Shown piece by piece: positions 36,457-49,215 of a DNA stretch of 64,000 nt. A program made the translations under genes and the position numbers. The DNA comes from Escherichia coli (GTDB lineage: Bacteria > Pseudomonadota > Gammaproteobacteria > Enterobacterales > Enterobacteriaceae), in NCBI RefSeq assembly GCF_048403405.1, contig NZ_CP183129.1, one strand, 5' to 3'. Each line of letters starts with the position of its first letter. Positions within the stretch are counted from its first letter, which is position 1. The notes beneath the pieces were generated by a model. It was not told where the DNA came from. It made no database searches and saw only the letters and a program-made list of their open reading frames with translations.

Positions 36457-37095
36457 ATGCCCGGGCGCTTTGAACTAAAACCAACCCTGGAGAAAGTCTG
36501 GCACGCGCCAGACAATTTTCGCTTCATGGACCCGCTGCCGCCGATGCATCGTCGGGGGATCATTATTGCCGCCATTGTATTGGTGGTCGGATTTCTGCTT
36601 CCATCTGATGATACGCCCAACGCGCCGGTGGTGACGCGTGAAGCGCAGTTAGATATTCAGTCGCAATCACAACCACCGACAGAAGAACAGCTGCGGGCGC
36701 AATTAGTCACGCCACAAAATGATCCTGATCAGGTGGCTCCGGTCGCTCCAGAACCAATACAGGAAGGCCAGCCAGAAGAGCAGCCGCAACCCCCCCAAAC
36801 GCAACCATTCCAGCCAGATAGCGGAATTGATAATCAATGGCGCTCTTACCGTGTCGAACCCGGTAAAACGATGGCACAGCTGTTCCGCGACCACGGGCTG
36901 CCCGCTACCGATGTCTATGCAATGGCGCAGGTAGAAGGCGCGGGTAAGCCGCTGAGTAATTTGCAAAACGGGCAGATGGTGAAAATCCGCCAGAACGCCA
37001 GCGGCGTGGTGACGGGCTTAACCATTGATACGGGGAATAATCAACAGGTCTTGTTTACCCGCCAGCCGGATGGCAGTTTTATTCGTGCGCGGTAG
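36457..37095 (+). CDS. ytfB: cell division protein YtfB (OapA-like)
   Basis: 212 aa from MPGRFELK (ATG 36457 with aggagg SD); TM segment and Pro/Gln-rich linker. Confidence 0.9.
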
Positions 37096-37404
37096 ATGAA
37101 GGGTCAACCAAAAGCCAGCTAAGGATTGTCTCTTTGATGACCTTACGTCTGGCTTCCAGTGCCTGGGGGAAACCATACTGATATGATAAACCAGGCCAAG
37201 CGTATGCTGGTTGATCAAATAATATCCCCCAAGCGCAGCAATATTAATATACACCTGCAATGGGTCGATATCTGGCTTAAAAATATTGTGTTTCTTCCCT
37301 TCATCCAATAAGGATTCCATTAACTGCAAGTGCGCATGATTAATTTCTAAGAGACGCTGTGATTTTGCATAATGCACACCTTTACTTTGGTTTTCACTAT
37401 GCAC
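37018..37404 (-). pseudogene. ytfA: remnant of a TetR-family regulator (C-terminal ligand-binding part only)
   Basis: ORF with GTG start; sequence (…[22 protein letters not shown]…) resembles a TetR C-terminal domain; no HTH domain; overlaps the ytfB 3' end antisense by 78 nt. Confidence 0.45.
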
Positions 37405-46625: not shown

Positions 46626-46657
46626 CCGGATAGCGTGGAGTAGTTCGCGCTATCCGG
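46626..46657 (+). terminator. hairpin downstream of ulaG
   Basis: ccggatagcg (46626-46635) pairs with cgctatccgg (46648-46657), 12-nt loop, followed by cgtagtatttcc. Confidence 0.5.
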
Positions 46658-46719: not shown

Positions 46720-47475
46720 ATGACTGAAGCACAAAGACATCAAATCCTCCTGGAAATGCTCGCACAATTGGGCTTTGTGACCGTTGAGAAAGTCGTTGAG
46801 CGTCTGGGAATTTCGCCTGCCACTGCGCGACGCGATATCAATAAACTTGACGAAAGCGGCAAACTGAAAAAAGTGCGCAATGGCGCAGAAGCTATTACCC
46901 AGCAGCGCCCACGCTGGACGCCGATGAATCTGCATCAGGCGCAGAATCACGATGAAAAAGTACGTATTGCTAAAGCGGCCTCGCAGCTGGTTAATCCGGG
47001 CGAAAGCGTAGTCATCAACTGCGGCTCCACCGCGTTTCTGCTTGGGCGGGAAATGTGTGGCAAGCCTGTGCAAATCATCACTAATTATCTACCGCTGGCA
47101 AATTACCTGATCGATCAGGAGCATGACAGCGTGATCATTATGGGCGGACAATACAACAAAAGTCAGTCCATCACTTTAAGCCCGCAAGGCAGCGAAAACA
47201 GTCTCTATGCCGGGCACTGGATGTTTACCAGCGGCAAAGGGCTGACAGCAGAAGGGTTGTATAAAACCGATATGCTGACGGCAATGGCAGAGCAGAAGAT
47301 GCTAAGCGTGGTAGGGAAACTGGTGGTACTGGTTGATAGCAGTAAGATTGGCGAACGCGCGGGAATGCTTTTTAGCCGTGCCGATCAAATCGATATGCTG
47401 ATCACCGGCAAAAATGCTAACCCGGAAATCCTGCAACAACTGGAAGCGCAAGGGGTCAGCATTCTGCGTGTTTAA
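46720..47475 (+). CDS. ulaR: DeoR-family repressor of the ula regulon
   Basis: 251 aa; N-terminal HTH, DeoR C-terminal sugar-phosphate domain. Confidence 0.95.
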
Positions 47476-48221
47476 AGATGCTGCCGGAAAAATGTCACGG
47501 CAGCATCTAACGCCTCAGGCGTAATGCGGTGACGCACGCCTGGCTGCCATGAACAGGTTAGCAGTTTATCCCGTCCCGTCTCGCTTAAGGCCTGCTGCAA
47601 ACGTAGTGATTCGTCGGCAGGCACGACGTCATCGTCAAGGCCATGCCACAGCAGTAGAGGTCTGTCACCAAGTTGTTCCAGGTGGTTTGTCGCTTCCCAC
47701 TCTGCCAGCGGCGCGACAATGTTATTGAATTCATTCTGCTGTGCTGCCGTTTCAGGTATCAGCGGTGGAAACAGTGAACGGGCGAGCGATGTAAAATAGC
47801 CCGATCCCATCATGCTGGCGGTACATTTCACCGTGGGGTGGCGAGCGGTAATTCCCAGTGCCGTCATCGCGCCCATCGACGCGCCACCGACTGCCAGACG
47901 GTCAGCAAGCAGCCAGTTTTCTTCGGCTATTGCCGCACGTAACGTAGTGAATTCCTGCATGCTTTGTAGCAAAATTTGCCAAAATTGATTTAACCGCCGC
48001 GCTGCGTCGCCCCTAAAACGGCTACCGTGATCGGGCGCATCCGGCATGATCACTCGCAAACCAGCCTGCGCCAGCGCAACGGCAAAATAGCTATACACCA
48101 GACTGGACGAAGTAAAGCCGTGATAAAAAATCGCGCACGGTAACGGGGTATCTTTTTGCCCGGCAGGATAAGCATGAAGAACGGGAATATCTGCCAGCTC
48201 GCGTGATTCTATTTCAATCAT
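47472..48221 (-). CDS. yjfP: esterase YjfP (alpha/beta hydrolase)
   Basis: 249 aa; GxSxG motif GGASMGA; stop codon overlaps the ulaR stop. Confidence 0.93.
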
Positions 48222-48402
48222 CTGTCTCTCCTTTTTGTCTGGTATGACATGAAGAAATCCTTAGCACAAGTTTCTGCTGGCGGTATTAGTTCATAATGTT
48301 GAGATGTGGGTTACGCTTTCGTCACGTTTTCATTCGAAAATCGCGTACCAGGTAACAATTCGGGAACATTCCCCCAAAGTTAAATTAATAAGGCACTACA
48401 CT

Positions 48403-48732
48403 ATGGTTAGCAGGAAACGTAATAGCGTTATTTACCGGTTTGCCAGTTTATTATTGGTGTTGATGTTAAGTGCCTGTAGCGCACTGCAAGGTACGCCACA
48501 GCCAGCACCGCCAGTAACGGACCATCCGCAAGAGATTCGCCGCGACCAGACGCAAGGGTTACAGCGAATAGGTAGCGTAAGCACGATGGTTCGGGGTTCT
48601 CCGGATGACGCATTAGCAGAAATCAGAGCGAAAGCTGTCGCTGCAAAAGTTGATTATTACGTTGTCGTCATGGTGGACGAAACCATCGTGACAGGACAGT
48701 GGTATTCACAAGCCATTTTGTACCGTAAATAA
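48403..48732 (+). CDS. bsmA: biofilm/stress lipoprotein BsmA (YjfO), DUF1471-like
   Basis: 109 aa from ATG 48403; lipobox LSAC; the ORF-track call is extended. Confidence 0.9.
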   Translation: MVSRKRNSVIYRFASLLLVLMLSACSALQGTPQPAPPVTDHPQEIRRDQTQGLQRIGSVSTMVRGSPDDALAEIRAKAVAAKVDYYVVVMVDETIVTGQWYSQAILYRK

Positions 48733-48880: not shown

Positions 48881-49156
48881 ATGAAACAATTACTTGCCTC
48901 ACCCTCGCTGCAATTAGTGACTTATCCTGCGAGCGCCACGGCACAGTCTGCAGAATTCGCCAGTGCTGACTGCGTGACAGGCCTGAATGAAATAGGTCAG
49001 ATCTCAGTTAGCAATATTTCAGGGGATCCGCAGGACGTGGAACGTATCGTGGCGTTAAAGGCCGATGAACAAGGTGCGTCATGGTACCGCATTATTACCA
49101 TGTACGAAGACCAGCAGCCTGATAACTGGCGCGTACAGGCGATACTGTATGCATGA
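48881..49156 (+). CDS. yjfN: DUF1471 small secreted protein YjfN
   Basis: 91 aa from ATG 48881 with ggag SD; signal peptide. Confidence 0.88.
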   Translation: MKQLLASPSLQLVTYPASATAQSAEFASADCVTGLNEIGQISVSNISGDPQDVERIVALKADEQGASWYRIITMYEDQQPDNWRVQAILYA

Positions 49157-49181
49157 GTATCATCTACAGCAAATGAACAAT

Positions 49182-49215
49182 GCCGGATGCGGCGCGAGCG
49201 CCTTGTCCGGCCTAT
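49182..49215. repeat. REP element
   Basis: gccggatgcggcgcgagcgccttgtccggcctat between the convergent yjfN and aidB. Confidence 0.85.

Follow-up and report, generated by a model that had tools for sequence, protein, structure and literature searches.

The window analyzed here is a 64-kb stretch of Escherichia coli DNA (64,000 nt; RefSeq assembly GCF_048403405.1, contig NZ_CP183129.1) in which ulaR, encoding a transcriptional repressor, and yjfP, encoding an esterase, face each other tail to tail. The features of this junction are listed below by position, strand and identity, with the source of each assignment in brackets.

46720-47475, plus strand: ulaR coding sequence, DeoR-family repressor of the ascorbate ula regulon (ORF list, NCBIfam NF010034, RefSeq)
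47472-48221, minus strand: yjfP coding sequence, alpha/beta-hydrolase esterase (ORF list, NCBIfam NF007857, RefSeq)
47472-47475, both strands: TTAA tetramer holding both stop codons (sequence and 71-sequence alignment)
47476-47486: left arm of an inverted repeat, AGATGCTGCCG, complement of the yjfP codons Arg-Gln-His-Leu (repeat search, fold)
47498-47508: right arm of the inverted repeat, CGGCAGCATCT, complement of the yjfP codons Leu-Asp-Ala-Ala (repeat search, fold)
47484: polymorphic stem base, C here (yjfP Arg CGG) and G in K-12 (CGC), synonymous (window compared with K-12)
47232-47371, minus strand, in yjfP read-through RNA: C-rich, G-poor stretch, candidate Rho-utilisation region (judged from composition)

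The two coding sequences overlap by 4 nt (TTAA, 47472-47475), leaving zero intergenic bases. On the plus strand ulaR ends CGT GTT TAA, with its stop at 47473-47475, and on the minus strand yjfP ends CAT CTT TAA, with a stop that is the complement of tta at 47472-47474. Both stops fit within one TTAA because TAA and TTA are reverse complements, and they have 2 nt in common (47473-47474). A preliminary description of this DNA had already noted two shared stop-codon nucleotides and the lack of intergenic space, and the sequence and the ORF list bear this out. The predicted UlaR protein matches the NCBIfam equivalog NF010034 over residues 1-251 of 251 (485.8 bits), and YjfP matches the equivalog NF007857 (esterase PRK10566) over residues 1-249 of 249 (445.9 bits), both far over the cut-off. 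Because both proteins match their equivalogs over the full length, the two stops are not annotation artefacts; a mis-annotated stop was rejected on these end-to-end matches and on the retention of the geometry in the 71 sequences described below. RefSeq annotates the 4-nt overlap also in TUM14771, a near-identical strain from which the window differs by five substitutions and one G-run indel, and likewise in K-12 MG1655 (yjfP at 4416952-4417701 on the plus strand and ulaR at 4417698-4418453 on the minus strand). The 1.6-kb ulaR-yjfP region is present in 5424 of 5426 complete E. coli genomes.

A scan for UlaR that took one genome per species yielded 80 loci, spanning Escherichia, Salmonella, Citrobacter, Enterobacter, Klebsiella, Leclercia, Kluyvera, Trabulsiella and other genera. 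The exact register of the yjfP end is kept in 70 of these 80 species representatives, which together with the window give 71 aligned sequences. The junction tetramer is TTAA in 47 of the aligned sequences, TTAG in 18, CTAA in 4 and CTAG in 2. These are precisely the four tetramers that stop both strands, and the substitutions that separate them are silent in the partner (ulaR Val, GTT or GTC; yjfP Leu, CTT or CTC). Over the same 71 sequences UlaR holds 85-100% identity and YjfP drops to ~57%. Seven species, belonging to Kosakonia, Phytobacter, Cedecea and relatives, have an ulaR that ends in GTG or GTT and is followed by a separate yjfP stop, with a spacing of 0 nt in three of them and 9-12 nt in another three, the seventh being locus L073. 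In two species (Edwardsiella, loci L071 and L077) yjfP is absent beside ulaR. No terminator-sized spacer between ulaR and yjfP was seen among the species loci compared. As judged from these alignments, the zero-spacer arrangement is old and has been kept across the Enterobacteriaceae through substitutions that preserve both stops.

Junctions of this type form a described class. Lillo and Krakauer (2007, PMC2174442) reported a jump at 4 nt in the lengths of convergent overlaps, with TTAA, TTAG, CTAA and CTAG as the tetramers. For E. coli the same study counted 58 convergent overlaps and predicted a terminator within the partner for 19 of them, pointing out that any terminator of such a pair has to be placed in the coding sequence of the other gene. 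The yjfP-ulaR pair consists of two genuine, full-length, opposite-strand genes joined at the allowed tetramer TTAA, and it shares with the class its geometry, its tetramer and its both-stop-preserving substitutions. Nothing essential differs, although the pair is unusually well conserved within its family (71 of 80 compared). The ulaR-yjfP junction is an ordinary, ancient 4-nt tail-to-tail overlap, already known both as a class and as an instance.

The left arm of the inverted repeat begins 1 nt past the ulaR stop. The arms are 11 nt each, 100% complementary and 11 nt apart, and the whole repeat lies in the last 12 codons of yjfP. The hairpin that the preliminary description placed in the 3' coding region of yjfP is therefore real, but the position given for it (47477-47509, with 10-nt arms) was one base off, the actual repeat occupying 47476-47508 with 11-nt arms. 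The stem is a perfect 11 bp with a loop of 11 nt, or of 6 nt if two inner pairs form. Its predicted folding energy is -23.4 kcal/mol on the plus strand (z = -5.0) and -24.0 kcal/mol on the minus strand (z = -5.6), and 0 of 200 shuffled sequences fold equally well. Compared with 45-nt windows drawn from coding interiors, the hairpin allele carried here is among the most stable 0.1-0.2%. Perfect inverted repeats of at least 10 bp with a loop of 3-20 nt number 12 in the 64-kb window, against 1.0 +/- 1.1 in dinucleotide shuffles. The other 11 are all intergenic and directly follow a stop codon, with convergent genes flanking five of them; the repeat at the ulaR-yjfP junction is the only one of the 12 inside a coding sequence. 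The repeat at 47476-47508 is beyond chance in this strain. A ribosome terminating at either stop would cover or melt the adjoining hairpin arm, and the stem would therefore form only when translation trails transcription. The palindrome forms just as well in the yjfP mRNA, and the tail that follows it there (UUUAAAC) looks slightly more like that of a terminator than does the tail on the ulaR side (UAACGCC); this second form of the hairpin had been overlooked in the preliminary description.

Like a canonical intrinsic terminator, the junction hairpin has a G+C-containing 11-bp stem right after a stop codon. It differs in its long 11-nt loop and in the absence of a U-tract after the stem on both strands (TAACGCCT on the plus strand, TTTAAACA on the minus strand), and a consensus terminator scan left the site uncalled on both strands, whereas the hairpin after ulaG at 46626-46657 was called. 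The junction hairpin is not a canonical intrinsic terminator. Neither ulaR nor yjfP, nor any coordinate within MG1655 4,417,000-4,417,999, appears in the curated tables of Term-seq 3' ends and Rho regions of Adams et al. (2021, PMC7815308), and the TERMITe supplements gave no match at the locus. Among the entries covered of a rifampicin time series, ulaR appears solely as an internal event without significance, which was left out of the assessment. Low expression may explain the missing mapped 3' end at the junction. The C-rich, G-poor stretch at 47232-47371 lies 100-240 nt past the yjfP stop and has a C content of 35-38% and a G content of 12-17%, with a C/G ratio of up to 3.0 in 80-nt windows. 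RNA past the ulaR stop is not C-rich, with a C/G ratio of ~1.0-1.2 for ~360 nt. Where yjfP is absent (Edwardsiella L077 and L071), no canonical terminator was found within ~450 nt of ulaR, an observation that weakly fits factor-dependent termination of ulaR.

Two groups of U-less structures offer parallels. Bidirectional U-less terminators between convergent E. coli genes, driven by collision of RNA polymerases, are attributed to Ju et al. (2019) as cited in Wang et al. (bioRxiv 10.1101/2022.10.23.513370). They resemble the yjfP-ulaR hairpin in being palindromic, in lying at a convergent boundary, in occurring in both transcripts and in not looking like intrinsic terminators. Their hairpins lie in the intergenic spacer, whereas that of yjfP-ulaR lies in coding sequence, is polymorphic and unconserved, and has no documented paired 3' ends. 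Rho-dependent transcripts can carry a U-less protective 3' stem-loop with a rut site just downstream, as described by Dar and Sorek (2018, PMC6061677). The junction is similar to these in combining a stable U-less stem-loop with a C-rich, G-poor stretch downstream on the yjfP side. The comparison is a better fit for yjfP than for ulaR, and no steady-state 3' end is reported at the junction.

The stem itself varies within the species. With G at 47484, the K-12 stem is reduced to 8 bp followed by a G.G mismatch and then 2 bp, and the yjfP-strand fold changes from -24.0 kcal/mol in the window to -16.8 kcal/mol. The exact 81-nt allele of the window is carried by 25 of the 5419 complete E. coli genomes (~0.5%), and the K-12 allele, with its one stem mismatch, by 3320 of them. 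Set against coding windows, the K-12 allele falls at 1.4% on the plus (ulaR) strand and at 12% on the minus (yjfP) strand. The perfect 11-bp stem is rare and arose recently, by a synonymous change, from a weaker stem of 8 bp.

Between species, the ten outer pairs of the window's stem show no covariation across the 71 sequences. The fraction of paired cells is 56.9%, against 57.8% in column shuffles, and 483 of 500 shuffles are at least as high. Double changes are seen at only 2 of the 10 pairs, and 499 of 500 shuffles do as well (483-500 of 500 over all measures). RNAalifold returned 0 consensus pairs on the 71-sequence alignment, and a conserved RNA structure was rejected on these two results; a search of the hairpin site against Rfam gave no family at E<=1. 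The conserved bases in the arms track the conserved C-terminus of YjfP (FFRQHL and the stop). The stem is without conservation and is therefore probably not a dedicated selected element.

Strong hairpins are found at the same site, in other registers, in Citrobacter, Klebsiella and some Enterobacter. Expressed as the sum of alignment columns i+j, the register is 60 in Escherichia, 67 in Citrobacter and 58 in Klebsiella. The Citrobacter hairpin at locus L018 (-23.7 kcal/mol) relies on G-U pairs available on the ulaR strand alone, and Klebsiella L060 provides a further clade-specific hairpin. The differing registers among genera could reflect turnover of a selected structure; folds at the junction site are weak in many genera. 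The 45 nt past the ulaR stop on the plus strand fold more stably than interior windows of that strand (median percentile 0.24, with 14 of 71 at <=0.05), whereas the yjfP-strand windows are not (median percentile 0.80). When the last 15 yjfP codons are compared with synonymous recodings, 15 of 71 species on the plus strand and 14 of 71 on the minus strand fall at <=0.05, the species being non-independent. Eight internal control positions give 3-11 of 71 at <=0.05 in the same test, and the excess at the yjfP end is just beyond this range.

Since there is no spacer, a polymerase that transcribes one gene to its end must go on into the opposing one. The expectation in the preliminary description that transcription of each gene runs into its partner agrees with this geometry and with the listing of yjfP-ulaR among the 165 convergent excludons of MG1655 (Sanmartin et al., NAR 2025, PMC12288877, Table 1). 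The criterion of ExcludonFinder is an overlap of transcript boundaries in >=50% of 58 MG1655 RNA-seq sets, and 146 of the 165 convergent excludons have overlapping TransTermHP predictions (PMC12288877). The pair is thus itself a listed member of the class, and the mutual antisense interference proposed for it in the preliminary description is what defines such excludons. RNA-seq coverage is the sole basis of the catalogue. The two coding sequences already overlap, and an excludon listing is therefore near-automatic once both genes are expressed; the listing is uninformative on the length of the transcript overlap or on any regulatory effect. The literature yielded no reciprocal-expression data for ulaR and yjfP, and no termination or interference experiment at the locus. 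Condition-dependent transcription of yjfP is suggested by a sigma-S ChIP-seq peak between bsmA and yjfP (PMC4447067). From the arrangement of the two genes, mutual antisense regulation of ulaR and yjfP is possible.

The explanation that best accommodates these observations, to which we assign a probability of about 0.7, is an ancient 4-nt overlap with non-canonical transcript ends and a passive, non-conserved stem. The junction at no time has room for a shared intergenic terminator. Each transcript would continue past its own stop into the antisense of its partner, and would probably be ended there by non-canonical means, through Rho acting on the untranslated antisense RNA and/or through head-on collision of polymerases. 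The U-less stem-loop would act at most as a pause site or as a barrier to 3'-5' exonucleases, in either transcript. Cross-talk through antisense RNA is physically feasible for ulaR and yjfP, and is probably a weak by-product of the layout rather than a designed regulatory link.

The palindrome could alternatively be a functional, selected element inside yjfP, U-less and bidirectional, that pauses or terminates transcription and has changed register between genera. Under such a mechanism the nascent-RNA hairpin would pause both polymerases, leading to their collision and to termination at a fixed place. The hairpin does form on both strands at about -23 to -24 kcal/mol, it lies at a convergent junction as do five of the 11 other perfect repeats in the window, and it is unlike an intrinsic terminator, as reported for the U-less class (bioRxiv 10.1101/2022.10.23.513370). 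The stability of plus-strand windows past the ulaR stop relative to internal windows, the slight excess of stable folds over synonymous recodings and the clade-specific hairpins of Citrobacter (L018) and Klebsiella (L060) point the same way. However, the recoding excess is barely outside the range of the internal controls, the site folds weakly in many genera, and neither covariation nor a consensus structure is detected. The perfect stem is moreover a 0.5% allele, the common allele does not stand out on the yjfP strand, and the tables of Adams et al. (2021) contain no 3' end at the site. We regard selection for a bidirectional element as unlikely. A different reading of the palindrome, as a DNA-level binding site such as an operator for UlaR or another dimeric regulator, would draw on the perfect symmetry of its 11-bp arms around an 11-bp spacer directly downstream of a repressor gene. 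Half-site matches with <=1 mismatch in the window number 8, against 4.6 expected, and none falls in the ulaG-ulaA control region; an operator-like site was rejected on this lack of repetition beyond chance and on its absence from the ula control region. In the common E. coli allele, moreover, the symmetry is broken, and from genus to genus the arms are conserved only where YjfP keeps its C-terminus FFRQHL. A role as a protein-binding site is extremely improbable.

Selection might instead act on the zero spacer. An adaptive excludon, in which polymerase collision and/or cleavage of the RNA duplex by RNase III would tie the level of UlaR, and with it repression of the ascorbate operon, to conditions that induce yjfP, is a quite improbable account of the junction. 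The catalogued status of yjfP-ulaR as a convergent excludon would agree with it, as would the higher synteny of excludon pairs as a group relative to other neighbors (PMC12288877), but the listing is almost automatic given the overlap of the coding sequences, and p19 dsRNA capture could not validate convergent excludons in general (PMC12288877). Retention of the junction across the family while YjfP falls to ~57% identity may likewise be taken as a sign of selection; conserved adjacency is equally expected under neutrality, because any inserted DNA would disrupt one of the stops or C-termini that meet there. The sigma-S peak upstream of yjfP (PMC4447067) would supply an inducing condition, yet the literature offered no reciprocal expression data for the pair, the esterase has no known functional link to ascorbate use, and ulaR occurs without yjfP in L071 and L077. 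A combined proposal would have selection hold the junction as a whole. The yjfP-embedded U-less hairpin would then serve as a shared pause or termination element that also stabilizes RNA, its 3' arm would have been re-invented in Escherichia, Citrobacter and Klebsiella, and the obligatory overlap of transcripts would couple stationary-phase (sigma-S) transcription of yjfP to the level of UlaR. We consider this combination very doubtful.

The ulaR-yjfP junction matters little as it stands: its annotation is standard, its class was described in 2007, and the pair is in a published list of overlapping transcripts. If either the hairpin or the overlap had a function, the locus would offer a compact natural example of a terminator or pause element encoded within a gene, and could reveal how convergent genes lacking a spacer finish transcription and whether there is interference between them. 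A synonymous C/G polymorphism occurs naturally at 47484 and toggles the stem between perfect and mismatched, providing a cheap and clean test bed for the relevance of the stem. Within the window there are 13 convergent gene pairs, and yjfP-ulaR is the sole intact pair among them without a spacer, the other intact pairs being separated by 32-128 nt. A TetR-family pseudogene and ytfB form a further convergent pair, with an overlap of 17 nt.

Strong hairpins at the 3' end of yjfP also occur in other genera. Two loci from the one-genome-per-species UlaR scan carry one in the same place as E. coli, within the last yjfP codons and directly past the ulaR stop, in other registers:

L018:3257-3296, strong hairpin, Citrobacter youngae
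L060:3258-3286, strong hairpin, Klebsiella spallanzanii

Two of the 12 pairs in the Citrobacter youngae stem are G-U, which is why its stability reaches -23.7 kcal/mol on the ulaR strand but only -16.8 kcal/mol on the yjfP strand. In E. coli, the palindrome is directly followed by a second, smaller structure:

47510-47522, small hairpin ACGCC TCA GGCGT

Its bases are mostly invariant in the 71 species, and this conservation is accounted for by protein coding, because the hairpin falls on the codons for the conserved YjfP residues TPEAL.

The window contains 12 perfect inverted repeats of at least 10 bp, where about 1 would be expected. Besides the palindrome, these are:

centres at about 4731, 25358, 26524, 27667, 30609, 33153, 33873, 38582, 46641, 53903 and 55137, eleven further perfect inverted repeats of at least 10 bp

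All eleven are intergenic and lie shortly 3' of a stop codon, and five are situated between convergent pairs (paeA/ytfK, ytfJ/hypothetical, cpdB/ytfH, ytfE/cycA and yjfZ/rplI). These repeats are likely to be terminators, some of them bidirectional. Upstream of ulaR, the spacer that separates it from ulaG contains the following element:

46626-46657, + strand, perfect 10-bp inverted repeat CCGGATAGCG / CGCTATCCGG, 14 pairs when extended

This repeat lies 14 nt 3' of the ulaG stop and 63 nt 5' of the ulaR start, and was scored as terminator-like with a weak T tail in the terminator scan. A terminator-like repeat between the two genes suggests a separate promoter for ulaR, with transcription independent of that of ulaG.

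On the other side of yjfP, the length of the divergent bsmA-yjfP spacer, in a region with a published sigma-S ChIP-seq peak, depends on the bsmA start: 182 or 81 nt. The longest ORF starts at 48304 (48304-48732, 142 aa), while the RefSeq start is at 48403 (48403-48732, 109 aa). In the spacer of the convergent pair yjfN/aidB, Rfam returned a sub-threshold match:

49138-49212, both strands, weak naRNA4 match

The match scores 30.6 bits, below the gathering score of 59.5, with E = 0.011. naRNA4 is a REP-derived nucleoid-associated RNA, and this segment is probably a REP element.

The window holds a second convergent overlap, of 17 nt, between a TetR/AcrR-family pseudogene and the 3' end of ytfB:

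37078-37094, TetR/AcrR-family pseudogene / ytfB overlap region

The pseudogene is annotated without its N-terminus in strain TUM14771, a near-identical E. coli, and a G run inside it (37164-37169), with 5 G in the window versus 6 in TUM14771, is the sole indel between the two sequences.
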